Positions 1,820 through 20,995 of a stretch of 64,000 nucleotides of DNA are shown one piece after another. This DNA is from Gammaproteobacteria bacterium. Lineage in GTDB: Bacteria > Pseudomonadota > Gammaproteobacteria > JAJDOJ01. Within the stretch, counting starts at the first letter, position 1. Each line of letters opens with the position of its first letter. The position numbers were made by a program, and so were the translations under genes. The stretch lies in assembly GCA_022340215.1 (NCBI GenBank), contig JAJDOJ010000164.1, positions 290-64,289 of the forward strand. The letters run 5' to 3'. Under the pieces are notes generated by a model. It worked only from the letters and a program-made list of their open reading frames with translations, did no database searches and was not told the origin of the DNA.

Positions 1820-3121
1820 CTACGAGTTGCCGAAAAACAACTGGTTCTGTTCTGCCCGGAGTTGGTCCACGAGACGCCCTTGCGGGACTTCCACGTCGTC
1901 GTACGTCACTGTGGTGTCTTTAGGAATATTCCGTTTCAACCTACATCCCTCTGCTAGCCCTATTGGCAGGAGTCTCTCCGCGGAACAGACATCCGCATTC
2001 TCCGCCTCTCCGTAGGTCATGTAGTATCCCATGCCGTCCAGTACCTGCCCTGCCTTGAGATCGATCTTGGCGGTCGTGACCACGTCGACGCAGGGACCTC
2101 CAGCAGGCATGATAGCGCCGTCATTAAACAATGCAGCGCGGGCTACGGTCGTCGGGACCTCGAAGTGGCATAGGTGATAGGGTGTATAGAAGCAATACAG
2201 CGGGCCTTCTCCCAGTTTGTACAGATTCAGATAGTGCTGCTGTTGCGGGTGATCGTGCGTTCCGAGGACAAACACCCCCGGGCCCGGTTCCGCCCTAACC
2301 ACGTAATCGACGATCCCCGTGCCTTCGATGAGGTCTTCGAGTGGATACCAGTTCACGGCCTCCTTGATCGGGGTGCCCGGCTCGACGGTCGGCCCGTGCA
2401 TGCCGCGTTTGGCCACGCGCATACCGGTCGCATTCGCCACGATGGCCTGCTCGAAAGAGATCTTGGTCCCGTCCGCGAACGAGGTCACCATATGGGCCTT
2501 TTGACCCCATTGCCTGGCAAATCCCTCCTGGGTCGTCGGATTACGGTACGGGTCCTGGAGGCCCTTGATGTTGCCGCATAGCACCGGTTTGACACCGATG
2601 CCCTGAACGAATCGATAGAGGTTCAGAATGACACCGGGCTGGTCACCATCGGCATTCGTGTAAACAACGCCAGCCTTGTCCGCATAGGTCTTCAGCAATG
2701 GCCCGATCGTACCGTCCAGTTCCGCGTTCATGATGACGACATGCTTGCCGTTCTCGATGGCCTCCATCACCACACGGGCACCGAACTCAACCGCCCCTGT
2801 CACCTCAATTAGCACCTCGATATGATCCGACCGGCAAAGAAGCATAGAATCGTCGGTTACGGCATAGGTCCCTTTCTCTATGGCCTCGTCCAGCGATGAG
2901 ACTGAATCCACGCACAGCGTGTCGTCTACATCCGCCTCCCGATAGGCCCTGATCGCACCCTCGACAGACCGATTGGAAATCGCGACCAAATCCATCCCAG
3001 GAGTATATTTCAGAATCTGTAACGCGATTCCCCTCCCCATGAAACCTGCACCTACCATCCCAACCCTGATGGGTCTATTCTCCGCCTCTCTCTGCTTCAG
3101 CGCTGTGTCCACAATAATCAT
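1820..3121 (-). CDS. NAD(P)-binding oxidoreductase with a C-terminal SAF domain (homoserine-dehydrogenase-like, COG4091 type). Last gene of the CDP-sugar operon.
   Basis: Rossmann motif VGMVGAGFMGRG at the N-terminus. 433 aa. Same orientation as the sugar-nucleotide genes upstream. Confidence 0.6.
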   Translation of the reverse strand: MIIVDTALKQREAENRPIRVGMVGAGFMGRGIALQILKYTPGMDLVAISNRSVEGAIRAYREADVDDTLCVDSVSSLDEAIEKGTYAVTDDSMLLCRSDHIEVLIEVTGAVEFGARVVMEAIENGKHVVIMNAELDGTIGPLLKTYADKAGVVYTNADGDQPGVILNLYRFVQGIGVKPVLCGNIKGLQDPYRNPTTQEGFARQWGQKAHMVTSFADGTKISFEQAIVANATGMRVAKRGMHGPTVEPGTPIKEAVNWYPLEDLIEGTGIVDYVVRAEPGPGVFVLGTHDHPQQQHYLNLYKLGEGPLYCFYTPYHLCHFEVPTTVARAALFNDGAIMPAGGPCVDVVTTAKIDLKAGQVLDGMGYYMTYGEAENADVCSAERLLPIGLAEGCRLKRNIPKDTTVTYDDVEVPQGRLVDQLRAEQNQLFFGNS

Positions 3122-3187
3122 GCACGCGACTCCAAAATCTGTCTGGATGGAATATCCCCTTGCGTAAGACCGGTCCGGGCGAGGTGA

Positions 3188-3718
3188 TTAACCCTCAAAG
3201 TCCGGCCAAGATGCATCTTTATCGGAGATAACGGAGACCGTGACCGGCCACTCGATTCCCAGGGCCGGGTCGTTGTAGCGCAAACCCTGTTCGGCACCAG
3301 GCGTATAGAACTCCGTCACCATATAATAGGCTTCGGTGTCGTCCTCCAAGGTCACGAATCCGTGAGCAAAGCCTTCAGGCACGAACAACATCCGATGGTT
3401 ATCCGCGGTAAGTTCTACACCTATCCAATCCTTAAATGTCGGGGAGTCTTCACGAAGATCGACGATGACGTCATAAAGGGACCCGCGCGTGCAACGTACC
3501 AGTTTCGACTCCTCGTGGGGACTGATCTGGTAATGCATGCCCCGCATTGTGCCCTTTTTTGTGCTCAGGGAAACGTTGGCCTGCGCGAGATCCGCCGACA
3601 AACCATGTTCCTGCATTTCCCGCTTGCACCAGGCTCTGGCGAAAAAACCTCTTTCATCCCCCAGTTCCTGGATATCGATGATAAAGGCACCCTTGAATTT
3701 GGTCTCGTCAAACTTCAT
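3188..3718 (-). CDS. RmlC-like cupin sugar-nucleotide 3,5-epimerase (dTDP-4-dehydrorhamnose 3,5-epimerase family)
   Basis: 176 aa. Start KFDETKFKGAFIIDIQELGDERGFF and motif MHYQ...VPEGFAHGF are typical of RmlC-family epimerases. Confidence 0.75.
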   Translation of the reverse strand: MKFDETKFKGAFIIDIQELGDERGFFARAWCKREMQEHGLSADLAQANVSLSTKKGTMRGMHYQISPHEESKLVRCTRGSLYDVIVDLREDSPTFKDWIGVELTADNHRMLFVPEGFAHGFVTLEDDTEAYYMVTEFYTPGAEQGLRYNDPALGIEWPVTVSVISDKDASWPDFEG

Positions 3719-3756
3719 GGCTTGTCGCTTTGTTCTATGTGTTTGGACCCGGCGCC

Positions 3757-4806
3757 TTAGGCGATCCAGCGCAATTCTTTGCCAAGAAGTTTTCTTTCTT
3801 GCAGACCGTTCAGAACCTTTAACCGCATGTATTGGGAGTTCCGGAAGTCCTGGTTGTCAAACCCCATACGCTCCAGTCCCTCTCTCAATTCCCGAATCGA
3901 TTGATCTAGCGGTACCTGAGGGAGGTGACCCGGGGCAAGCGACTTGTACAGACTGAAATCAACTCGATAGGAGCGCTTGTCCGGTTGGGCTTCCGTGTTG
4001 ATCTCCAGCTCCACATCCGGCATCTGCTCCTTTACGGCCTCCGCAAGATCTCGAACCTGGTAGTTCCACTCCGTCCTTCCAACGTTGACTGCCAGGAAAG
4101 CGCCGCCGTTCGATGCTTCACGGCTCACGGCCCAATTCATCGCGCGGCTCATGTCCTTGATGTCGATTAGCGGGCGCCACGGGGTGCCGTCACTGAGTAT
4201 CTTGATCTTCCTCGAAGCGACCGCGGCCGCTACAAAATCATTTAGAACCAGGTCCAGACGCAGGCGTTCGCTCATACCACAAGCCGTAGGAAACCGCAGA
4301 CTGGTGACAACGAAACTGTCTTCAGCCAGACCTTGAATGGATTTTTCCGTGTTTATCTTTGATCTCGCATAGGCGGTTAGTGGGTTTAACTCAGAATTTT
4401 CATCTCGCGCCTCACCCTCGGCGTAACCGTATACACTGCAGCTGGAAGCGAACACGTAGGACTTCACGCCCGCCTCTTTCGCCATCTCGGCAATCCGTAG
4501 GCTGGAACGGTAATTGACTTCGGCGGTTACGTTCTCGAACGCATTACCCATAGGATCGTTGGAGATAGCGGCCAGATGGACAACGCTGTCCACCCCTCGC
4601 AGGAACTGCAGTTCAATATCTCGAACGTCCCTGATGTACTGAACATCGATTCGGGTTTCCGGAAGCACTTCGGCCCCCGTAAGACAGTGACCAAAAAAAC
4701 CCGTGTCTACCCCCACTATCTTCACCCCCGGATAACCCGCCTTTAGCGTACGTACCAGCGTTGGACCGATGTACCCCATGTTTCCAGTAATTAAGATGTT
4801 CTGCAT
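3757..4806 (-). CDS. NAD-dependent nucleoside-diphosphate-sugar epimerase/dehydratase (extended SDR)
   Basis: N-terminal glycine-rich motif ITGNMGYIG, catalytic YARSK (YxxxK), 349 aa. Confidence 0.75.
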   Translation of the reverse strand: MQNILITGNMGYIGPTLVRTLKAGYPGVKIVGVDTGFFGHCLTGAEVLPETRIDVQYIRDVRDIELQFLRGVDSVVHLAAISNDPMGNAFENVTAEVNYRSSLRIAEMAKEAGVKSYVFASSCSVYGYAEGEARDENSELNPLTAYARSKINTEKSIQGLAEDSFVVTSLRFPTACGMSERLRLDLVLNDFVAAAVASRKIKILSDGTPWRPLIDIKDMSRAMNWAVSREASNGGAFLAVNVGRTEWNYQVRDLAEAVKEQMPDVELEINTEAQPDKRSYRVDFSLYKSLAPGHLPQVPLDQSIRELREGLERMGFDNQDFRNSQYMRLKVLNGLQERKLLGKELRWIA

Positions 4807-4935
4807 TTTTACTCGAGTAGTTCCCTAGAAATAATTGAAATATTCATAGTCACACTCAAGCAGAGCGTGCCCGTGCCGTGTTTCATTTTCCCTTGAACCG
4901 CTGGTATGGGGCAATTCAAGGAGATCTCAATACTC

Positions 4936-6156
4936 TCAGGTCAAGGTGGATAGATTACGGTCGATATAGTCGACAACGTAAGCGGAGAATGGGATTGAAC
5001 ACGTCCATCCCGGCGACACAGCATTCAACACATGGGTTGACTCACTATTTCCCTCCAACACGAAGTCCATTTCCAGTTTGCGTTTCTTCGTGTTGACCAA
5101 TTGTGCGCGAATGCCAGGCTTACCCCAATCCCTGAAATGCGACTCGGTAACTCCCGTTGCCAATTTCGTTGCCAGTGAAATCAGATGGTTGCGTGAATAC
5201 TTCCGGATCTCCGTCATCGCCAACCTGGAAAATTTGAATTCGGACGAGGTAAACAGCGATGCAGAACGCAAACCAATATCGACAACCTCACCTAAACTGA
5301 ACCCGTTGAACCCATTGTAATTCTCGCGCCAGAAAGCAGGGATAGCAGTAGGCCCGATTTTGGTTATTCCATCAACGGTAATAGTGAAATGGACGCCGAG
5401 GAACGGATATTCGAGATCCGGAACTGGGTAAATATGCGTCTTGTATGCCCCTTTCTGTTCATTAGATTTCAGGTAGATTCCTTTGAACGGCAAGATCGCA
5501 TAGTCCTCGGAGAAACCAAAATCGCGCGCCACCTTGTCGGCGTACAATCCAGCGGCATTCACTAGATGACCCACCACGTAATCGCCAGATTTGGTAAGTA
5601 TCTTCATTCCGTCTCGCCTGACATATCCAGCGCCGTATCGGAAGTCGATCCCTTCCCGTCTGGCATCCTGCTCCATGTGCTGGATCACCGTGAGTGGATC
5701 GGCGGATGATGTTGTCGGCGAATAAATAGCTCTGCGGTAGGTCTTGATTCGCGGTTCTATCCGCCGTGCCTCCTCCGCGCTCAGTTCCTCGAGCGCCACA
5801 CCATTGGTCGCTCCACGCCTCAATAGTTCATCCAGCAACCTGTCTTCCGACTCATTAGACGCGACGACAAGCTTGCCGCATTTGTTGAGAAATATCCCTT
5901 TATCGTCACAATACTCGGTGAGGGCCTGATTTCCGTCCCGAGTAAATCTGGCCTTCAGACTATCGGCCGTGTAGTAAAAGCCAGCATGCAGCACGCCGCT
6001 ATTCCGACCGCTGGCATGTTCGCCGCAGACGGTTTCCTTTTCCAGGAGGACAACACTGGAACCCGGATTCCGACGTTTTATCTCACGCGCTATGTTGATT
6101 CCGATGATGCCTGCGCCGATGACGAGGAAATCGGCTCGTTTTGCCTTGGTCACCAT
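4936..6156 (-). CDS. FAD-dependent oxidoreductase (DAO superfamily, L-2-hydroxyglutarate-oxidase-like)
   Basis: FAD fingerprint DFLVIGAGIIGINIA at the N-terminus. 406 aa. It sits inside the sugar operon. Confidence 0.65.
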   Translation of the reverse strand: MVTKAKRADFLVIGAGIIGINIAREIKRRNPGSSVVLLEKETVCGEHASGRNSGVLHAGFYYTADSLKARFTRDGNQALTEYCDDKGIFLNKCGKLVVASNESEDRLLDELLRRGATNGVALEELSAEEARRIEPRIKTYRRAIYSPTTSSADPLTVIQHMEQDARREGIDFRYGAGYVRRDGMKILTKSGDYVVGHLVNAAGLYADKVARDFGFSEDYAILPFKGIYLKSNEQKGAYKTHIYPVPDLEYPFLGVHFTITVDGITKIGPTAIPAFWRENYNGFNGFSLGEVVDIGLRSASLFTSSEFKFSRLAMTEIRKYSRNHLISLATKLATGVTESHFRDWGKPGIRAQLVNTKKRKLEMDFVLEGNSESTHVLNAVSPGWTCSIPFSAYVVDYIDRNLSTLT

Positions 6157-6929
6157 ATCTTCCAGGGAGCTTCACCACTATCCCAAATGCTTTCCAGGTG
6201 GTTCTTGTCTCTCAGCGTGTCCATGGGGTGCCAGAATCCATGATGTCGATATGCGCTGAGCTGATTGTCCGATACCAACGCGTCCAGTGGTTCCCTCTCC
6301 CAGACCGTGGAATCACCTTCGATGTAATCCGTTACCTTCGGCTCCAGGACGAAAAAACCTCCATTGATCCAAGCATTTTCTTCCTTCGGCTTCTCACGAA
6401 AATGCTTTATCACGTTCTGCCCTTCTGCGAGAGTAAAAGCTCCAAACCGACCGGTGGGTTGAACTGCGGTAAGGGTCGCTAGTCTACCCTGCTGCCTATG
6501 AAAGCTTACGGCCTCACTAATATTGATGTTTCCGACACCATCTCCATAGGTCAAACAGAATGTCTCGTCGCCAATGTAACCCCTCACCCTTTTTAAACGG
6601 CCGCCAGTCATGGTTGCCACCCCCGTGTCCACCAAAGTGACCTGCCACTTTTCAACCCCACTCTTGTGGATTTGTGTATCCTTACCCTCCCCGTCAAACG
6701 TGAAAGTCACGTCCGACCTGTGAAGCCAATAATTGGCGAAATACTCTTTGATAACATATCCCATGAATCCACAACAAATAACGAATTCACTAATACCATG
6801 GCAATAGTAAATTTTCATAATATGCCAGAGAATCGGCATCCCGCCCACTTCGACCATTGGTTTAGGCCGAATCGAAGTTTCTTCCGACAGCCGAGTGCCC
6901 AACCCACCGGCAAGTATCACTGCCTTCAT
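6150..6929 (-). CDS. rfbF: Glucose-1-phosphate cytidylyltransferase (CDP-glucose pyrophosphorylase). First gene of the operon.
   Basis: MKAVILAGGLGTRLSEETSIRPKPMVEVGGMPILWHIMKIY is the RfbF/DdhA signature. 259 aa. Confidence 0.85.
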   Translation of the reverse strand: MKAVILAGGLGTRLSEETSIRPKPMVEVGGMPILWHIMKIYYCHGISEFVICCGFMGYVIKEYFANYWLHRSDVTFTFDGEGKDTQIHKSGVEKWQVTLVDTGVATMTGGRLKRVRGYIGDETFCLTYGDGVGNINISEAVSFHRQQGRLATLTAVQPTGRFGAFTLAEGQNVIKHFREKPKEENAWINGGFFVLEPKVTDYIEGDSTVWEREPLDALVSDNQLSAYRHHGFWHPMDTLRDKNHLESIWDSGEAPWKIW

Positions 6930-10509: not shown

Positions 10510-12108
10510 ATGCCGAAATTACCCGTACATTCGTTGCATCACGATTTCTACCTTGTCCTGTTTCTGCTCCTGATCAGCCAGGGAGTCTCTGCAGCAACCG
10601 GTAAACCCAATATCCTTGTCATCTTCGGTGATGATATCGGGATGTACAACATCGGCGCCTACCACCGGGGATTGCTCGGCGGAAAGACACCTAATCTCGA
10701 CCGCATCGCGGGGGAGGGCGCGATGTTCACGGACTACTACGCCCAGCAAAGTTGTACGGCAGGGCGAGCCGCGTTCATCACGGGTCAGCACCCCTACCGC
10801 ACCGGCATGCTGACCATCGGGATGCCGGGTGACACGCAGGGGATCCAGGCTAAGGACCCCACCATCGCCGACCTGCTGAAACCTCTCGGCTACAACACCG
10901 GACAGTTCGGCAAGAACCACCTGGGCGACCGCAACGAGTTCCTGCCCACGGTACACGGCTTCGACGAGTTCTACGGAAACCTCTACCACCTCAACGCCGA
11001 GGAGGAACCTGAAACCTATTTCTATCCGACCAACCCGGAGTTTCACAAGAAATTCGGCCCGCGCGGCGTACTCAAATGCGTATCTTCCACCAAGGTTGAC
11101 GACAGTGAAGATCCGCGTTTCGGCAAGGTCGGAGCACAGCAATGCGAGGACACCGGACCGCTATCCCGGGAACGCATGACGACCGTGGACGACGAGTTCA
11201 TGAAATCCGCGCTGGATTTCATCGACAGGTCCCATCGGGACGGCAAACCCTTTTTCGTATGGTTTAACTCCACCCGAACTCATGTCTGGACCCATCTCAA
11301 AGAGGATAGCGTGGGCAAGTCAGGCTACGGCCTCTACGCCGACGCGATGCTGGAGCACGACAAGCAGGTAGGTACCCTGCTCGACAAGCTCGACCAGCTC
11401 GGGATCGCGGACAACACCATCGTGGTCTACTCCAGCGACAACGGTGCGGAGGTGTTCACCTTCCCGGACGGTGGTTCGATCCCCTTCAAGGGAGAGAAAG
11501 GCACGACCTGGGAGGGCGGTATGCGCGTGCCCACGCTCGTTCGCTGGCCGGGGGTGGTGGAACCGGGCCGCGTGATCAACGACATCTTCAGCCACGAGGA
11601 CTGGCTTCCCACCCTGCTGGCTGCCGCCGGCGTTCCCGACGTGAAACAGCAGCTGTTGAAGGGCTATGAGGCGGGTGACAAGACCTTCAAGGTCCATCTC
11701 GACGGTTACAACCAGACCGGATTGCTGAGCGGCAAGGACGAAGGCGCCCGCAAGGAGATCTTCTACTTCGACGCCGGCGGACACATGAACGCGATCCGCT
11801 ACAAAGACTGGAAGATCAGCTTCACGATCATGGAGGGCTCCATCAACGAGGCCTATCGAAAGACGCCGAGCTGGCCGATCGTCACCAACCTGCGAATCGA
11901 CCCGTGGGAACGGGCGCCGTTCGAAGGCAGCGGCTACATTCGCTGGTATGCAGACCAGATGTGGATGTTCGTCCCCGCTCAGGCCGCGGCAACGAAGTTC
12001 CTGTCGACCTTCAAGGACTATCCGCAGAGCCAGAAGGTGGGATCTCTCAGTATCGACAACGCAATCGAGATGCTGGAGAACGCGCAGTCCAGCGCCGTGA
12101 GACAATAG
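10510..12108 (+). CDS. Arylsulfatase (type I sulfatase) with a signal peptide and a non-canonical C-T-A-G-R formylglycine motif
   Basis: 532 aa. Signal peptide present. Motif SCTAGRAAFITGQ is followed by the sulfatase metal/active-site regions (GKNHLGD, SDNG). Confidence 0.8.
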   Translation: MPKLPVHSLHHDFYLVLFLLLISQGVSAATGKPNILVIFGDDIGMYNIGAYHRGLLGGKTPNLDRIAGEGAMFTDYYAQQSCTAGRAAFITGQHPYRTGMLTIGMPGDTQGIQAKDPTIADLLKPLGYNTGQFGKNHLGDRNEFLPTVHGFDEFYGNLYHLNAEEEPETYFYPTNPEFHKKFGPRGVLKCVSSTKVDDSEDPRFGKVGAQQCEDTGPLSRERMTTVDDEFMKSALDFIDRSHRDGKPFFVWFNSTRTHVWTHLKEDSVGKSGYGLYADAMLEHDKQVGTLLDKLDQLGIADNTIVVYSSDNGAEVFTFPDGGSIPFKGEKGTTWEGGMRVPTLVRWPGVVEPGRVINDIFSHEDWLPTLLAAAGVPDVKQQLLKGYEAGDKTFKVHLDGYNQTGLLSGKDEGARKEIFYFDAGGHMNAIRYKDWKISFTIMEGSINEAYRKTPSWPIVTNLRIDPWERAPFEGSGYIRWYADQMWMFVPAQAAATKFLSTFKDYPQSQKVGSLSIDNAIEMLENAQSSAVRQ

Positions 12109-12249: not shown

Positions 12250-12824
12250 TCCGCGGGGCGTCATCCGTTCCACTGCCGGCGGCGAGATCGAGGACACGGG
12301 TCAGCTTACGAAGAAGCGCATGGAGACCGTCGACGACGAGACCTCGGACGCCGCCATCGACTTCATCGAGCGGCAGCACAATGTCGGCAGGTCCTGGTTC
12401 GTCTGGTGGAACGGGACCCGCATGCACTTCCGCACCCATGGTAGGCGATTTCTGCCAGAGGAAGGAAATCTTCTACTTCTCCGACGACGTTGACCTGACG
12501 GCCCTGCGTTACGAGGACTGGAAGGTCATCTTCATGGCGCAGAAGACCCCGGGGACCTTCCGGGTGTGGATGGAGCCCTTCACGCCGCTGCGCGTGCCGC
12601 TGATCGAGAACCTGCGCCGCGACCCCTACGAGCGCGCCACCATCACCTCGAACACCGACTACGACTGGCTGCTGGACCGGACGTACGTGCTGGTGCCCGC
12701 GCAGGCCTACCTGGGGCAGTTCCTGGAAACCTTCAGGGAATACCCGCCGCGCCAGAAGGCCGCCAGCTTCAGTCTGGACCAGGTGATGGAAAAACTGTCG
12801 GAAGGTCCCGGGGCGAGTCACTGA
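12250..12824 (+). pseudogene. Decayed arylsulfatase paralog (internally deleted and frameshifted, N-terminal catalytic half missing)
   Basis: One frame encodes EDTGQLTKKRMETVDDETSDAAIDFIERQHNVGRSWFVWWNGTRMHFRTH, aligning with residues around 215-265 of the upstream sulfatase. It then runs into a stop. A second frame (12381..12824) encodes KEIFYFSDDV...RYEDWKVIF...YVLVPAQAYLGQFLETFREYPPRQKAASFSLDQVMEKL, aligning with the C-terminal 130 aa of the intact sulfatase. Confidence 0.75.
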
Positions 12825-13901: not shown

Positions 13902-14429
13902 GTGGACTCCACAGTAATGTCGAAATCGACGCCGGATTCAGTGGCGCGCAATCGTAGCGGGACGAAACGAAAGGATTCGGACGATGAAGTCCATTCTGAC
14001 GCGGAGTGGGTGCAGAGCGATGTGCACGGGGAAAATGGCGGACCGGGCATCCGCCGCATCACCAAATCCAGCGATGGCTGGCAGATCATGGCCTCCGCTA
14101 AACCGACGCGGCGGTTACTCTTGAGATGCCACGAAGAACTCCTGGAACTGACGAAAACCGCAGCACCGATCGTAGTGGGCCGACAACTTGACTGCGATGT
14201 GGTTCTCGACGACTTGAATGTCTCCCGATCTCACGCCCGATTCGAGTATTGCAACGGCCGGTGTATGCTAACCGATCAGAGTCTCAACGGAACGTACGTC
14301 GATACGGACTTCGACGGCAGGGTCCACCTCGTGCAGTCGCGGATGTTCCTCTATGGCTACGGAATCGTCAGCCTGGGAAAACCGGTGCGCGCCGGCGACA
14401 GGATGCTGCTGCACTACTTCTGTAGCTGA
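13902..14429 (+). CDS. FHA-domain protein
   Basis: FHA signature GRQLDCDVVLDDLNVSRSHARFEY...LTDQSLNGTYVD. The N-terminal 70 aa are polar and disordered. The start may be an internal Met. Confidence 0.65.
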   Translation: MDSTVMSKSTPDSVARNRSGTKRKDSDDEVHSDAEWVQSDVHGENGGPGIRRITKSSDGWQIMASAKPTRRLLLRCHEELLELTKTAAPIVVGRQLDCDVVLDDLNVSRSHARFEYCNGRCMLTDQSLNGTYVDTDFDGRVHLVQSRMFLYGYGIVSLGKPVRAGDRMLLHYFCS

Positions 14430-14437
14430 CCCCTCCA

Positions 14438-15619
14438 TTATCCGCCACTGCGTATCATCTTGCGTATGCCGCGCACCGCCTGGCGGGTACGATGCTCGTT
14501 CTCGATCAGCCCGAAACGCACGTGGTCGTCTCCATACTGCCCGAAGCCAACTCCCGGGGACACGGCCACCTTTGCCTCGTTGAGCACCTTCTTAGAGAAC
14601 TCCAGCGAACCCATGTCCCGGTACGGTTCGGGGATCGGCGCCCAGACGAACATCGTCGCCTTCGGTCGCTCTACCGGCCAGCCGGCATTGTTGAGACCAT
14701 CGCACAGGACGTTGCGGCGCTCGCGATAGGTGCGCCGCACCTCATCAACGCAGTCCTGAGGGCCTTCCAGCGCGGAAATGGCGGCGACCTGGATCGGCGT
14801 GAACATTCCGTAGTCGAGATAGGACTTTATGCGTGCCAGCGCAGCGACCAACGTCTTGCAGCCGCACATGAAACCGACCCGCCAGCCCGGCATGTTGTAG
14901 CTCTTGGATAGCGAGTAGAACTCCACCGCAATATCGCGGGCCCCCGGCACCTGTAGAATCGAGGGGGCCCGGTATCCGTCGAAGACGATCTCGGCGTAGG
15001 CGATATCGTGAACCACCCAGATCTTGTGTTCGCGCGCGATCTCGACCACCCGCTCGAAAAACGCCAGGTCCACGCACTGCGTGGTCGGGTTGCTCGGGAA
15101 GTTCAGGATCAGCATCTTCGGCTTGGGCCAGGCGTCCTTGAGTGCCTTTTCCAGTTCCTCGTAGAAATCCGTCCCCTTCGTCATCGCGACGTAGATCACC
15201 TCGGCCCCGGCGATCACGCAACCATAGGGATGAATGGGATAGGCGGGATTGGGCACCACGACCGCGTCCCCCGGACCTAGCGTCGCCAGTGTCAGGTGCG
15301 CCAGGCCCTCCTTCGACCCGATTGTCACGATGGCCTCGGTCTCCGGATCCAGTTCGACACCAAAACTGCGCTCATACCAACCCGTAACCGCCTTACGCAG
15401 CCGCGGAATCCCGCGAGACATGGAGTATCGGTGCGTATCCTTGCGTCTCGCCGCCTCCACGAGCTTCTCCACGATGTGTGACGGCGTGGGTTGGTCCGGA
15501 TTGCCCATACCGAAGTCGATGATGTCTTCGCCCCGCGCTCGCGCCGCCGCCTTCAACTCGTTGACGATATTGAACACATAGGGGGGAAGACGTTTTATTC
15601 TGGGAAAATCCTCGATCAA
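14438..15619 (-). CDS. PLP-dependent class I/II aminotransferase (AlaA/AlaC-like)
   Basis: 393 aa. Contains [15 protein letters not shown] (PLP-lysine region) and has overall AlaA/AlaC-type architecture. Confidence 0.8.
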
Positions 15620-15798
15620 GGCGGCCTCTGGTTTCTGCGCGCCGGCGTCCCGGCAAAAGCCGTCAGTTTACACGAACCGTGTGTTCGGTTGAGCCCGTGG
15701 CGTCGGTAAATCCCGCTCGAAACTGCGCATGGTCGCAGCCCGGACCCTCGCGCCCGGATCGCTATAATGGTGTGCACCGAGCGAGCCCCGGAGCCCTT

Positions 15799-16185
15799 AT
15801 GCAGATCACCCTCGAGTCCGACGAGCGTCGTAATCTCATTCAGCGCTACGACACCGCGTCGGTGCAGATCAACGAGGTCGTTTACACCGCCAGCCTCCTC
15901 GTAACACCCGACGACCTGCAATCTGACTGGTCTGTGACCTCCATCGACGATCTCGCCGAAAGCCATGTCGATGCGATCGCCAGTCTGGCACCCGACCTAG
16001 TCATCGTAGGGACGGGGACGACGTTGCGGTTTCCGCGTCCGTTGATTCATGCGGGTTTCGCCGGTCGCGGGATCGGAGTTGAGTTCATGGACAATGCCGC
16101 GGCCTGCCGCACCTACAATGTGGTTGCGGCCGAGGGACGGCGGGTCGTGTGCGCCCTGATCATGCCGCCATCCCGAACGGATTGA
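15799..16185 (+). CDS. Mth938-like (DUF498) domain protein
   Basis: MQITLESDERRNLIQRYDTASVQINEV...DLVIVGTGTTLRFP...GIGVEFMDNAAACRTYNVVAAEGRRVVCALI is characteristic of the Mth938/DUF498 family. The ORF extends to 15679, but the family starts at MQI. Confidence 0.6.
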   Translation: MQITLESDERRNLIQRYDTASVQINEVVYTASLLVTPDDLQSDWSVTSIDDLAESHVDAIASLAPDLVIVGTGTTLRFPRPLIHAGFAGRGIGVEFMDNAAACRTYNVVAAEGRRVVCALIMPPSRTD

Positions 16186-16465
16186 ACCGGGCCGAGATCC
16201 GACTGCGGATACGTCCGGGGATTCAATGCCCGTCTGCCGCATGGTTCCGCGCACACGCCGAGAACCCGTGTGATCTATCATCCTGTATGGGCCCACGGCA
16301 TCGAAATCTCCATACACAGTGAAGGGACGGCGTCACCGATGGTCGGCTGATCTCAACCGTCTGATCCGGCGGGATGACCATGCCAGCGGGTTCACGCTAT
16401 GGGCATGACGTACCGGCCGAAGGGGTCACCGGCAGGAAACGCTTTTATCAGCGACACGTAGGACA

Positions 16466-18274
16466 TTGAGCCCCCAACCACTTGCGCATGCCCCGAATAC
16501 GGACCAGAACCGGCAAACCGAAGCTCCAGCGACCGTGAATCCAGAATCCTTTAGACTGCCACTCGCCTACTACCGTTCTCAGACACGCTATCCGCAGCTG
16601 TCCGATGCGGACTGGCCCCTGCCCGAACAGCTCGGTGAGGTCATCGAGGCCCTCGGCGGTGGTCAACAGGACCCACGCTTTGACACCGCCGCCCGTGCAC
16701 TGGATGTCACCCCCGAGGAACTCCGCGAGGCATCCCGGTTCTTCGTGAGACAGGTCCTGTTCGCACCGAAAGGGGACTTCTATCGCGTCCTCGGTGTGGA
16801 CCCCAGCGCCGGGGCTGAACAGATCAAGCAGCACCATCGCCTGCTGATGCGAATCTTCCAACCGGACCGCCGACACGCGCACGAGTGGGAAAGACACTTC
16901 GCCAATAGGATCCACGAGGCCTGGACGACCTTACGAGACCCAAAAATGCGACGGTCCTACGACCGCAAACTCGGACCCCGACGGATCCGGCCTCACACGG
17001 CCAATGCGCAGGCAGAGGCGGCACGAACACGAGCCAGGGACTTCGGACAGCCCAGGGATTCCCATGACCATTCGCCGAAGCCTGGCGAGATCCTCTACCG
17101 TAGCCGACTGTGGATCCGCAAACCCTCCGCGATCATCTGGAGCGCTATTCTCCTGATCGCGGTGAGCGCCGCCGGCCTTGCAATCTTTACATCACGCCAA
17201 GGCGTCCTCTCCTGGCAGGCTGGCGACCAACAGCCGGTATCCGCCAACCTCGCAGGAGTCGGATCCACTCCACCGACCGCGACCGGCGCGATCGATCTGG
17301 CGCAACGGCAGGACGATCTCGACGAGACGGGTCCCGACGCCGTCGCCACGGAGCCCACCCCGAAACTGTTGAAGTCCTCACCAGCCGGAAGCGTCAAGGC
17401 TGGTCTGGAAACGGACGACAGCCAACCCGCAGAACTCGCAACAATCCGACACGATGAAGAACAAGAGACGGTCGTTCCCGACCAGACAAGAGAAGCCACT
17501 CCGGATAGGATCGATATCGGGATCGACCGGATGATTGCCAGGGTGGAATCGCCGGTAGTGCCAGCGGAAACTCCGCCGTACCGGACCAACGTGGAATCGC
17601 CCGCAACGCCCGCGGAAGTCCGGCCACCCGAGGTCGCGTCCGATTCCCCCGCCCGGGAGGCGACACCACCCTCCCCCGCACAGCCGTCCAAGGCATCCGC
17701 AGCCGCGGTTACGCAATCGAGCGCACAGCCGTCGGCGACAGCCATGTTGAAACCCTCCCCGGCGCCTGCCGAGGCGGATGGAGACACCGAACAGACGATC
17801 TCCCGTTCACCGGCTACCCAGGCAGGGCGTCCGGAACAAACGGCCGGTGGCGCTGCGGCCCTTTCCACGACCAGCACGCTAGCCGACGACTATGGCGATA
17901 TCTCAAAGCTGGAACTCAACATGCTGCTGGCCCGCTTCCTTGCGGCCTACGAAAACGGAGATCTGAAACGGTTCACGCGAGTCTTCTCCCGCGATGTTAG
18001 CCTGAACGATGGCGAGGGCTACCGTGCACTGCTCAAGGCATACAAATCGCTGTTCAGAAATACCGAGGCCCGACGGATGGTGCTCAACGACATCAGCTGG
18101 ATTCCTCTCGACGATACCCATCTGAAGGGCTGGGCGCGGACCGATATCGAACTCTGGCCCACCGGTCAGGAGGGTTCCGAACTGTTCACCGGAAATATCG
18201 TCCTGGTGGTGGAAAAAAAGAGCGACAAGCTGCAAATCACACGATTCGACCACCACATGACATCGCAGCCATAG
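16466..18274 (+). CDS. Membrane-anchored J-like domain protein (QPD in place of HPD) with a Pro/Ala/Ser-rich linker and a C-terminal NTF2/SnoaL-like domain
   Basis: J-domain-like region DFYRVLGVDPSAGAEQIKQHHRLLMRIFQPDRRH...AWTTLRDPKMRRSYDRKL. TM helix IIWSAILLIAVSAAGLAIF. About 200 aa of low-complexity sequence. C-terminal LELNMLLARFLAAYENGDLKRFTRVFSRDVSLND...IVLVVEKKSDKLQITRF resembles the NTF2-like fold. Confidence 0.6.
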   Translation: MSPQPLAHAPNTDQNRQTEAPATVNPESFRLPLAYYRSQTRYPQLSDADWPLPEQLGEVIEALGGGQQDPRFDTAARALDVTPEELREASRFFVRQVLFAPKGDFYRVLGVDPSAGAEQIKQHHRLLMRIFQPDRRHAHEWERHFANRIHEAWTTLRDPKMRRSYDRKLGPRRIRPHTANAQAEAARTRARDFGQPRDSHDHSPKPGEILYRSRLWIRKPSAIIWSAILLIAVSAAGLAIFTSRQGVLSWQAGDQQPVSANLAGVGSTPPTATGAIDLAQRQDDLDETGPDAVATEPTPKLLKSSPAGSVKAGLETDDSQPAELATIRHDEEQETVVPDQTREATPDRIDIGIDRMIARVESPVVPAETPPYRTNVESPATPAEVRPPEVASDSPAREATPPSPAQPSKASAAAVTQSSAQPSATAMLKPSPAPAEADGDTEQTISRSPATQAGRPEQTAGGAAALSTTSTLADDYGDISKLELNMLLARFLAAYENGDLKRFTRVFSRDVSLNDGEGYRALLKAYKSLFRNTEARRMVLNDISWIPLDDTHLKGWARTDIELWPTGQEGSELFTGNIVLVVEKKSDKLQITRFDHHMTSQP

Positions 18275-18358
18275 TTTCAGGTACGAACCATCGAGCCACG
18301 TGGGACCCGGCACGGGAGCACACAGCATTCTGGGCCGAATCTGTAGCACGGCTGCGCG

Positions 18359-19189
18359 TTACAGGCGATTCGCCGATCCCTGTTCCCGGCCAAACAACCG
18401 ACGCAGCCAACCGCCGGCCCGGGCAGCTGTAGCAGACGAATCCTGGACCAGTCCTTCCGGGAACGGTACGGCGTCGGGAGGCGCGTCCTCGAGGATGGCC
18501 CCTGGGCGACCCACCACCATCCTGAGCGCCTCCTCCTCCCCGACCCGCTCGGCCGCCGCATCCCGTCCCTCGGCAAGAAGTGGCGCCCGGTTTCCGAGGT
18601 TGTGCGCATCGGTGGCGAGGACGTGTACGACACCTTCATCCAGCATGCGCTCCGACCAGCGGCGCACACGCCGTCCGAAGCGGCCCGTCAGGCTGCCTGC
18701 CGTGAGCTGCAGCCAGGCGCCGCCCCTGGCGGCGTGGATGAACAGCTCATAGTGGTCCTCGATCCAGCGCAACCTTTCCGGGTGGGTGATCAGCGGGACG
18801 TAACCGGCGGCGAGGACGTTGAAAACGGATTCCGCGAAACGCGGGGGGGCAACATGGTGAGGCGGCTCGAAAAGGAAATACCGGCTGCCATTCAGGGTCG
18901 GTATACGCCCGGCCCTCAACCCCTCCACCAGATCCGGCACGAGGTGCGTGTCGGCGCCGAAGGTCAGGCGCAGCGGAATCCCTGCCTCAGCTAGTCGCTC
19001 CCTGAATCGCGTCACGGCCCTGCGAATCCCCTGCGCATCGTTCTCGTAGACGCCCGGGTAGATGTGCGGGGTACAAGCCACCTGGGTGATTCCGTCTCCC
19101 ACCGCCACCCGGGCCATTTCCAGCGCCGTGTCAAGGTCCGAAGCGCCGTCGTCGATACCTGGTAACAGGTGGCAGTGAAGGTCTATCAT
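18359..19189 (-). CDS. PHP-family (CpsB/YwqE-type) manganese-dependent protein-tyrosine phosphatase
   Basis: MIDLHCHLLPGIDDGA N-terminal signature plus downstream His/Asp metal ligands (THPER, ATDAHN). The ORF extends to 19303, but homologs begin at MIDLH. Confidence 0.7.
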   Translation of the reverse strand: MIDLHCHLLPGIDDGASDLDTALEMARVAVGDGITQVACTPHIYPGVYENDAQGIRRAVTRFRERLAEAGIPLRLTFGADTHLVPDLVEGLRAGRIPTLNGSRYFLFEPPHHVAPPRFAESVFNVLAAGYVPLITHPERLRWIEDHYELFIHAARGGAWLQLTAGSLTGRFGRRVRRWSERMLDEGVVHVLATDAHNLGNRAPLLAEGRDAAAERVGEEEALRMVVGRPGAILEDAPPDAVPFPEGLVQDSSATAARAGGWLRRLFGREQGSANRL

Positions 19190-19455
19190 CGTTTGGGTTT
19201 CCCGCCGCTGCGTGGTAACAGGTTCGCTCCCTGGGTTACGATCATCGATCGAATGACGGCTACACCACCCCTGCTCCCGGACAGGATGCGATTCACGCCA
19301 CAACCGTAGTGGGATGAGTATAGAGGAACCGGCCCGGGCTGTACCGTTTCGAACGACCCTATCGTCACGGAACGCGGCGCAAATCCGGTGTCGGATGCGG
19401 TCCGATCCTCACCGATCCTGACCCGGACACTCATCGAGGAATGATAAGGTGCAGG

Positions 19456-19921: not shown

Positions 19922-20995
19922 TTAGGGGGTCTGTTCCAGTATCACACCGCTGCCCGGGGCCTGGTACAGGTCAATGCGATCAAGGTGCGGGATCACGTTG
20001 GCCAGCCGAGTGAAGATCCAGCGGGCGATACCCGCCGGGTCCGTCGAGCCAATGTCGTCGATCTCGTCCAGCCGCCGGTGGTCAAGGAGATCATACACGG
20101 GACCGAACAGCGCCTTGACGTCGCCATAGTCAACGGTCCAGCCCATGAGCGGATCCAGTTGGGTGGTCAGATAGAGCCGTACCCGATAGCTGTGCCCATG
20201 AAGCCGGCGGCGGGGATCCCGCGAAGGCGCGTTGCCAAGACGCAGTGCGCTCTCGAACCGGCGTTCCTTCCAGATCCGATGGTTCGTCCCGTCGAAGTGG
20301 CAACCCGCCGTGGTCGTTTCGTACACGGTGACACGGGACAGCGATGGCACGGGAGGTTTGATCCGTCCCCAGATCCAGGTTGCGATCAACTCACTGGTCG
20401 GGTTCTCGAGACCGGGAAGGTCGTTGAGACAGCCATGGTCGAGTTCACGGAAGAGTGCACCCCATTCCCGGTCCAGCGCGGCCTCCTCGAGCCGGCACTC
20501 CACCTCGTCCAGGGAATGGCGGGTCCGCAGGTCGACATCGAAACCGTGCCCGTGCATGCGCCCGCAGGGGTGTCCGGGCGGCACGTTCGGCAGGCGGTGG
20601 GCGGCCTCGAAACGGACACGTCGCCACGCATGAACCGCGCTTCCGGGTTTGTAATCGATGCCGGAAGTCGGAGCGCCTCGGACGCTGACCCGGACGATCC
20701 CCGGCACGTCGATCCGCCTGGAGATCCAGCGCGCCAGATTCTCGTCGGTGGGCGTATCGAGGCGTTCGTTGAGCAGGGAATAGTCCAGCGGTTCCACGCT
20801 GCGCACCAGGGACCTCTCAAGCGCGGCGGACTCGTCGCCCGGAAAGCGGCCCCAGCCCGACGGAAGGTTCGCCCGAACCCGCGACAGAAAACTGTGGCCG
20901 TGCAGCCCCCTCTCGGAGCGATCGAACGAAGTACCGTCCAGACGGCGTGCAGCCTCGAACGGTGCATGTGCGGTATACAGCAGGAATTCTTTCAC
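19922..20995 (-). CDS. 6-pyruvoyl-tetrahydropterin synthase / QueD-family protein with three tandem PTPS-like modules
   Basis: Three repeats carry the Zn/catalytic signature: FDRSE-RGLHGHSF, FEAAHRL...CGRMHGHGF, FESALRL...RRRLHGHSY. 357 aa, about three times a PTPS domain. Confidence 0.65.
   Translation of the reverse strand: MKEFLLYTAHAPFEAARRLDGTSFDRSERGLHGHSFLSRVRANLPSGWGRFPGDESAALERSLVRSVEPLDYSLLNERLDTPTDENLARWISRRIDVPGIVRVSVRGAPTSGIDYKPGSAVHAWRRVRFEAAHRLPNVPPGHPCGRMHGHGFDVDLRTRHSLDEVECRLEEAALDREWGALFRELDHGCLNDLPGLENPTSELIATWIWGRIKPPVPSLSRVTVYETTTAGCHFDGTNHRIWKERRFESALRLGNAPSRDPRRRLHGHSYRVRLYLTTQLDPLMGWTVDYGDVKALFGPVYDLLDHRRLDEIDDIGSTDPAGIARWIFTRLANVIPHLDRIDLYQAPGSGVILEQTP

Follow-up and report, generated by a model that had tools for sequence, protein, structure and literature searches.

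DjlA of E. coli spans the inner membrane once, carries its J domain in the cytoplasm, lacks a classical substrate-binding domain and is functionally tied to the capsule. Its overproduction induces colanic acid via Rcs, a response that requires DnaK, membrane localisation and an intact His-Pro-Asp (HPD) motif (the H233Q variant is inactive; PMC11709261). The protein consists of an N-terminal transmembrane (TM) segment, a TerB-like domain and a C-terminal J domain, with no sizeable periplasmic domain (PMC11709261). DjlA is not encoded in a capsule operon. Here we analysed a stretch of 64,000 nucleotides (the window) from a Gammaproteobacteria metagenome-assembled genome (MAG; NCBI GenBank assembly GCA_022340215.1, contig JAJDOJ010000164.1, positions 290 to 64,289 of the forward strand), and in it one gene for a membrane-anchored J-domain protein in which the HPD motif reads Gln-Pro-Asp (QPD). 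We observed that related genes directly follow wzc in polysaccharide-export operons, and we define their products here as the Wzc-linked J-TM-NTF2 family, which has had no name. The window copy appears to be a divergent member that has left this operon, and its QPD appears to be private to one population.

By analogy, the window protein seems closest in concept to DjlA, which is likewise a J-protein of type III that sits at the membrane and has a tie to capsule. The preliminary description, made from the sequence by itself, had set its architecture apart from that of DjlA, and our comparison bears this out: the J domain is N-terminal (residues 104-166) and precedes the TM segment, so that the domain order is reversed, and the protein has a pre-J region of its own, a long tether and an NTF2-like domain. 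We considered orthology to DjlA and rejected it. The NCBIfam DjlA model NF006948 scored 12.1 bits against a cutoff of 162, matched only at the J domain's edge, and the topology is opposite; a Pfam scan of the window protein gave no match to a TerB domain. The type I and type II proteins DnaJ and CbpA resemble the window protein in the fold and sequence of the J domain. They differ from it in that the window protein is without the glycine/phenylalanine-rich region, the zinc finger and the C-terminal client-binding domains, is membrane-anchored and, in this lineage, carries QPD.

The N-terminal region contains a genuine J domain, as had been proposed. Pfam DnaJ (PF00226) covered it with the complete profile (positions 1-63 of 63) and scored 46.3 bits, where the cutoff is 27.8 (E = 4.7e-12), and the NCBIfam DnaJ models matched this stretch only, far below their whole-protein cutoffs (for example, 40.5 against 377 bits). 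An AlphaFold2 (AF2) model of residues 24-250 was confident through the J domain, with a predicted local distance difference test score (pLDDT) of 84-98 over model residues 1-150. The J-domain part of the model (pLDDT 86-98) superposed in Foldseek on 5nro_B, the J domain of E. coli DnaJ bound to DnaK, with a root-mean-square deviation of 1.6 Å over 62 columns and a template modelling score (TMt) of 0.89, and showed the hairpin of helix II, loop and helix III. Matches in a PDB profile search over the J region were J domains. At the position where J-domain proteins carry HPD, the window protein reads Q132-P133-D134, which agrees with the earlier account. The pre-J region ends in the conserved motif LREA.RFFV.QVLFAP, and neither its fold nor its sequence matched any solved structure.

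After the J domain there is only one strongly hydrophobic segment (19-residue Kyte-Doolittle maximum 2.47), the single TM helix described earlier, and it is followed by the Pro/Ala/Thr/Ser-rich linker that had also been noted (residues 250-480: 16% Ala, 13% Pro, 10% Thr and 10% Ser). Four Lys or Arg residues lie in the 15 residues before the TM segment and one in the 15 residues after it. From this positive-inside bias, together with the lack of a signal peptide and the need of a J domain to meet cytoplasmic DnaK, we infer an N-in/C-out topology for the window protein and for the family, which would make the linker a periplasmic tether.

The C-terminal domain had been described as NTF2/SnoaL-like, and this is borne out by fold while remaining below threshold by sequence. 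SnoaL_2 scored 16.5 bits against a cutoff of 27 and SnoaL_3 14.1 against 22, and a few family members show weak Pfam matches to SnoaL_2, DUF4440, SnoaL_3 or SnoaL_4. An AF2 model of residues 470-602, built with the 122-sequence family alignment as input, reached a mean pLDDT of 93.5 and a predicted template modelling score of 0.85, and its helices (H12-28, H31-36 and H50-62) and long strands form an alpha+beta cone. Foldseek returned 595 PDB matches at E<=0.001, the best of them NTF2-like structures of the SnoaL/LinA/scytalone-dehydratase type (E = 4.5e-9; template modelling score 0.75-0.80; 9-18% identity). The domain thus resembles the NTF2/SnoaL superfamily (SnoaL_2, DUF4440, LinA, scytalone dehydratase and ketosteroid isomerase) in its cone, and differs from it in its low identity, in being membrane-tethered and in its presumed periplasmic location. 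Across the family, R536 and G576 are invariant and Y495, G498, W545 and I591 nearly so. A binding role seems more likely for this domain than an enzymatic one.

The longest open reading frame (ORF) of the gene starts at a TTG, and both NCBI (MCG6869346.1) and JGI use a GTG at 16535 instead, giving a product of 579 amino acids. Since the typical N-terminus of the family also falls at about residue 21 of the window protein, GTG 16535 is the likelier start. Residue numbers here and in the preliminary description are those of the 602-amino-acid TTG form; they hold for that ORF, and run 23 too high if the GTG start is used. The NCBI entry (P0001 in our set) is annotated as 'MAG: DnaJ domain-containing protein, Gammaproteobacteria bacterium'. 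A scan for promoters and terminators around the gene found nothing above shuffled expectation.

We searched for relatives of the protein in several ways. A full-length homology search returned five matches: the protein's own entry, a near relative (P0002, 87% amino acid identity) and three distant relatives. This yield was low, probably because low-complexity linker words dominated the candidates, and a linker-free alignment remedied it, retrieving 120 further proteins that all scored above 200 bits. When the family profile was run exhaustively against 1.84 billion cluster representatives, 1,614 of them matched at E<=1e-30. The window protein, read from its GTG, matched the family profile with 317 bits (E = 2.9e-89) over positions 5-482, a full-length match, and on this sequence evidence it almost certainly belongs to the family. 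Members have 390-700 amino acids (median ~490), share the pre-J motif LxEAAxFFxQQVLFAPGxDSYRVLGV and a J domain reading RWLHPDRN, show one TM segment in 108 of 122 cases, and have an Ala/Pro-rich linker of variable length. The part of the family profile that covers the TM segment and the Pro-rich linker (~159-351) weakly matched PDB chains of ZipA (E = 1.2e-6) and VirB10 (E = 2.3e-3), a likeness that most likely reflects a common composition (a membrane anchor and a Pro-rich tether) and not homology.

The distribution of the family was scanned with one genome per GTDB species, which yielded 80 loci (L008-L087). Most belong to Lysobacterales (Arenimonas, Luteimonas, Tahibacter, Rhodanobacteraceae and Coralloluteibacterium) and a minority to Hyphomicrobiales (Bauldia, Amorphus, Microbaculum, Prosthecomicrobium and Bradyrhizobium sp. 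ORS 111), with isolated loci in Immundisolibacter and Thiobacillus MAGs.

The neighbourhood of these genes provides the main functional clue, which the preliminary description had missed. Using neighbour probes taken from two metagenomic contigs and counting the loci with enough flanking sequence, we found a Wzc-type bacterial tyrosine kinase (BY-kinase) and co-polymerase gene directly upstream of the J gene in 72/72 loci, preceded by a short Wza-type outer-membrane polysaccharide export (OPX) gene in all 69 evaluable loci and, before wza, by a gene for a CpsB/CapC phosphotyrosine phosphatase of the polymerase and histidinol phosphatase (PHP) type (49 of 66). A tetratricopeptide repeat (TPR) protein is encoded directly downstream of the J gene in 55 of 58 loci, and all these genes lie on the same strand. 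In 32 of 73 loci the J gene starts 4 nt before wzc ends, in another 8 the overlap is 1 nt, and in 92% the gap lies between -20 and +30 nt. We therefore hold with very high confidence, from gene order, that wzc and the J gene are linked in cpsB-wza-wzc-J-TPR operons. The complete genome of Arenimonas daejeonensis (strain KACC 14631, J gene at L054 9872-11323) illustrates the setting: the cluster encodes, in this order, ManC, a WecA-like GT4 enzyme, CpsB, Wza (EpsE-like), Wzc, the J-protein, the TPR protein (with a weak PrsT-like match), a Wzy-type polymerase and a TviB-like dehydrogenase, and is a Wzx/Wzy-dependent exopolysaccharide cluster. The Wza proteins of the family operons are short (240-263 amino acids, with Poly_export and SLBB only), like class-3 OPX proteins without an outer-membrane pore domain. 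In the full-text literature searched, including recent papers on short OPX proteins, we found no description of a J-domain component of Wzc/OPX systems, and the cpsB-wza-wzc-J-TPR core is apparently undescribed so far. The family gene is thus an integral, co-directional and usually translationally coupled part of export modules composed of CpsB/Wzb, a Wza OPX protein and a Wzc BY-kinase of the polysaccharide co-polymerase class PCP-2a.

The window copy differs in that it lies outside such an operon and does not follow a wzc gene. At E<=1e-3, the 64-kb window yielded no match to Wza, to Wzc or to the TPR protein. Of the remaining genes of the canonical operon only cpsB is left here; it is convergent with the J gene, and its product is 60% identical to the operon CpsB of locus L004. 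In the JGI contig L088 and the Logan contig L005, cpsB is called as 276 amino acids (18359-19189). The upstream neighbour, a DUF498 gene, is syntenic only within the window clade (L001-L003, L005 and L088) and is absent from all 80 family loci. The wider setting is one of housekeeping genes, with an aminotransferase and a forkhead-associated (FHA) protein on one side and QueD, YkuD, purF, cvpA, dedD, folC, accD and trpA on the other. The sister lineage, which carries HPD, shows the same orphan arrangement, and relocation must therefore have preceded the change from His to Gln.

The window clade has also diverged from the rest of the family. Its median identity to the family is 31%, compared to 40% within the family, and its best match outside the clade reaches 38%. 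At 20-23 of 77 conserved positions it no longer follows the >=80% consensus (W130I, L131F, P39Q and V149I are among the changes), and compared to the sister lineage the window sequence alone has the further derived changes H132Q and N150H at conserved J-domain positions. Three features, namely the departure from the operon, the drift at conserved positions and H132Q, jointly point to a derivative uncoupled from DnaK. The His of HPD is needed for the action of J domains on Hsp70, and H33Q of DnaJ and many chimeric J domains with this change are non-functional (PMC1906734); likewise, DjlA H233Q neither activates Rcs nor loosens the interaction of IgaA with RcsD (PMC11709261). The preliminary description had called His to Gln at this position a loss-of-function change, which these precedents support, and by analogy H132Q likely abolishes stimulation of DnaK by the window protein.

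With moderate confidence, and somewhat less than for the effect of H132Q itself, we favour the view that the window protein is a divergent, relocated family member that is uncoupled from DnaK and is either decaying or kept for a J-independent role of its periplasmic domain. The gene would first have left the operon, and its product would have changed at roughly one in four of the positions that the family conserves; in the window's own population, a single CAC-to-CAA transversion then turned HPD into QPD. Several points weigh against parts of this interpretation. The ORF is intact over 602 codons and, between the Q and H lineages, dN/dS in the C-terminal domain is ~0.35 on 59 substitutions, so that the gene of this clade is not simply a dead pseudogene. 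The J domain itself differs between these lineages by 3 non-synonymous and 4 synonymous changes, too few to show relaxed or maintained constraint. The positive-inside signal is weak across the family (2.3 versus 1.7 Lys or Arg residues), and the topology thus depends mainly on the J domain needing the cytoplasmic face. Orphan status refers to the 64-kb window; other parts of the genome could carry a wza-wzc cluster or a further copy of the gene in its canonical form. Finally, the mechanism proposed below for DnaK and Wzc is built from gene order and domain logic.

The intact ORF and the purifying selection on the C-terminal domain also favour an alternative in which H132Q is tolerated or neutral, the protein having taken on a new DnaK-independent role through its anchor and NTF2-like domain after leaving the operon, perhaps still together with the adjacent CpsB. 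It is consistent with this that W130I, L131F, P39Q and other clade-wide changes predate H132Q and are common to the HPD lineage, that QPD is the consensus in three assemblies, and that synteny with cpsB has been kept. However, the sister lineage retains HPD and shows few non-synonymous changes in the J domain, which argues that this domain had not obviously been freed from constraint before H132Q arose. We consider this alternative unlikely and prefer the DnaK-uncoupled derivative.

The preliminary description had read QPD as built into the architecture, marking either a non-canonical interaction with DnaK or an ancient J-domain fossil that serves as a cytoplasmic anchor, and had proposed to check its conservation in orthologs. 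QPD is indeed there, and the J domain around it is well formed, but at the level of the family this reading is refuted, since the orthologs carry the canonical HPD that the description itself had named as speaking against it. HPD is found in 229/229 other family members that cover the J domain, which is every retrievable one (from the exhaustive profile search, the top 150 of ~1,600 representatives could be retrieved), and in 73/73 evaluable family genes in reference genomes, as determined by a pattern census plus manual inspection of two exceptions. It is also found in all four relatives from the full-length search. Among these sequences, QPD was seen in the window protein and in copies identical to it, and nowhere else. 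Across the alignment of 122 sequences P133, D134 and R135 never vary, and H132, 99% conserved, is lost only in the window sequence (QPDR for HPDR), a pattern that marks the J domain of the family as functional. P0002, the nearest relative, differs at this codon by a single base: it has CAC (His) and the window CAA, a third-position transversion, in loci that share 97.6% nucleotide identity over the 5' 2.9 kb including the J domain. We therefore regard a built-in QPD as very improbable. A metagenome scan with the N-terminal region of the window protein gave 199 pattern matches and 0 relatives.

A sequencing or assembly error, conceivable for a single-base change (CAC to CAA) in a MAG, has next to no chance of being the explanation, since three assemblies from three sources share the codon (the NCBI MAG, the 25-kb JGI contig L088 from sample 3300037398 with 8 mismatches in 18,653 nt, and the Logan contig L005 from SRR12659820 with 2 mismatches in 4,141 nt, neither of these two in the J gene) and, differing by 2-8 single-nucleotide polymorphisms elsewhere, are not copies of one file. 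QPD is thus a real and recent substitution, and we are highly confident from these sequence comparisons that it is private to one environmental population.

Divergence from the sister lineage (L001/L003) is uneven along the locus. It amounts to 2.4% at 14879-17755 and to 9.1% at 17751-19435, which includes cpsB. Within the J gene, the 5' part has a dS of 0.02-0.09 and the C-terminal domain one of 0.37. The switch (~17751-17755) lies in the linker and coincides with a 37-amino-acid indel in the linker of the sister. This pattern suggests a recombination breakpoint inside the J gene at ~17751-17755.

For the canonical family, the layout would be a cytoplasmic pre-J region and HPD-bearing J domain, one TM segment and, in the periplasm, a disordered Ala/Pro-rich tether with the NTF2-like domain at its end, in a protein that would be made in step with Wzc. 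The NTF2-like module may bind the polymer or else those portions of the export machine that lie in the periplasm (of Wzc, Wza or the TPR protein), and the J domain would recruit DnaK-ATP and trigger hydrolysis. This would let DnaK act on the machine from the cytoplasmic side, with the Wzc kinase domain and the oligomer cycle as the most plausible targets, much as membrane-bound DjlA guides DnaK to those Rcs components by which capsule synthesis is controlled. We put this specific model of DnaK recruitment to Wzc forward tentatively, at odds that are even or somewhat lower. In B. subtilis a BY-kinase phosphorylates DnaK (PMC4835898), which provides a second possible logic for bringing DnaK and Wzc together. 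The fuller proposal is that the family constitutes a dedicated, operon-encoded Hsp70 co-chaperone of the Wzc/Wza machine, in which the NTF2-like domain would monitor or bind the assembly in the periplasm and the J domain would place DnaK at the cytoplasmic BY-kinase ring, where DnaK would either remodel the oligomer of Wzc over the phosphorylation cycle or itself become a substrate for tyrosine phosphorylation. In this form it is doubtful.

Table 1 Position of the J-protein gene, its domains and neighbouring features (coordinates in the window unless a locus is named).
Feature	Coordinates	Strand	Details
J-TM-linker-NTF2 gene, longest ORF	16466..18274	+	602 amino acids, TTG start
Pre-J helical region, family-specific	16535..16774	+	residues 24-103; conserved alignment columns, AF2
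J domain	16775..16963	+	residues 104-166; Pfam PF00226, PDB structural matches
Gln132 codon CAA, replacing His of HPD	16859..16861	+	Q132-P133-D134, helix II-III loop
Single TM helix	17126..17194	+	residues ~221-243; Kyte-Doolittle
Low-complexity linker, Ala/Pro/Thr/Ser-rich	17195..17905	+	composition; unalignable, variable length across the family
C-terminal NTF2/SnoaL-like domain	17906..18271	+	residues ~481-602; AF2, Foldseek, conservation
cpsB, CpsB/CapC-type PHP phosphotyrosine phosphatase, convergent	18359..19303	-	314 amino acids (longest ORF); Pfam PF19567, 178 bits
DUF498 (Mth938-like) upstream neighbour	15679..16185	+	Pfam PF04430, 102.9 bits
Example of the cpsB-wza-wzc-J-TPR core	L054 5820-12382		

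We also noted several features in the surroundings of the gene. The FHA-domain protein (13902-14429, + strand, 175 amino acids, FHA 49.2 bits) is encoded upstream of the J gene, at a distance of two genes, and the JGI contig shows the same synteny. On the other side, the product of 19922-20995 (- strand, 357 amino acids) contains three Pfam PTPS stretches along with QueD matches and looks like an internally duplicated (tandem-fused) 6-carboxytetrahydropterin synthase. A complete sulfatase gene (10510-12108, + strand) is followed by a 147-amino-acid ORF (12381-12824, + strand; called as 128 amino acids by JGI) that matches only the C-terminal region of aryl-sulfatases and may be what is left of another sulfatase gene after truncation. 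At ~1820-6929 (- strand) the GC content is 51-55%, compared to ~60-64% elsewhere in the window, and the genes encode a DRL-type oxidoreductase, an RmlC epimerase, an NAD-dependent epimerase/dehydratase, an FAD oxidoreductase and a nucleotidyl transferase; this region may be a horizontally acquired glycan-modification island.

By itself, the QPD allele is of minor importance, being a private and recent point change in a gene that was already out of its functional neighbourhood. The worthwhile lead is the family, with ~1,600 clusters and a gene that overlaps or nearly abuts the wzc stop in almost every genome examined. The cycling of Wzc between oligomeric and phosphorylation states and the coupling of periplasm and cytoplasm are active questions, to which an operon-encoded recruiter of Hsp70 with a periplasmic, sensor-like domain adds a testable hypothesis, and the culturable genera Arenimonas, Luteimonas and Tahibacter allow genetic testing of the family. 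The DjlA precedent, an overexpression phenomenon, would thereby be extended to a hard-wired component of the operon. If the family does act as a dedicated co-chaperone, capsule export in Lysobacterales and some Hyphomicrobiales would depend on Hsp70, and the QPD allele of the orphan gene would offer a natural case of separation of function that shows the role of the protein without DnaK.

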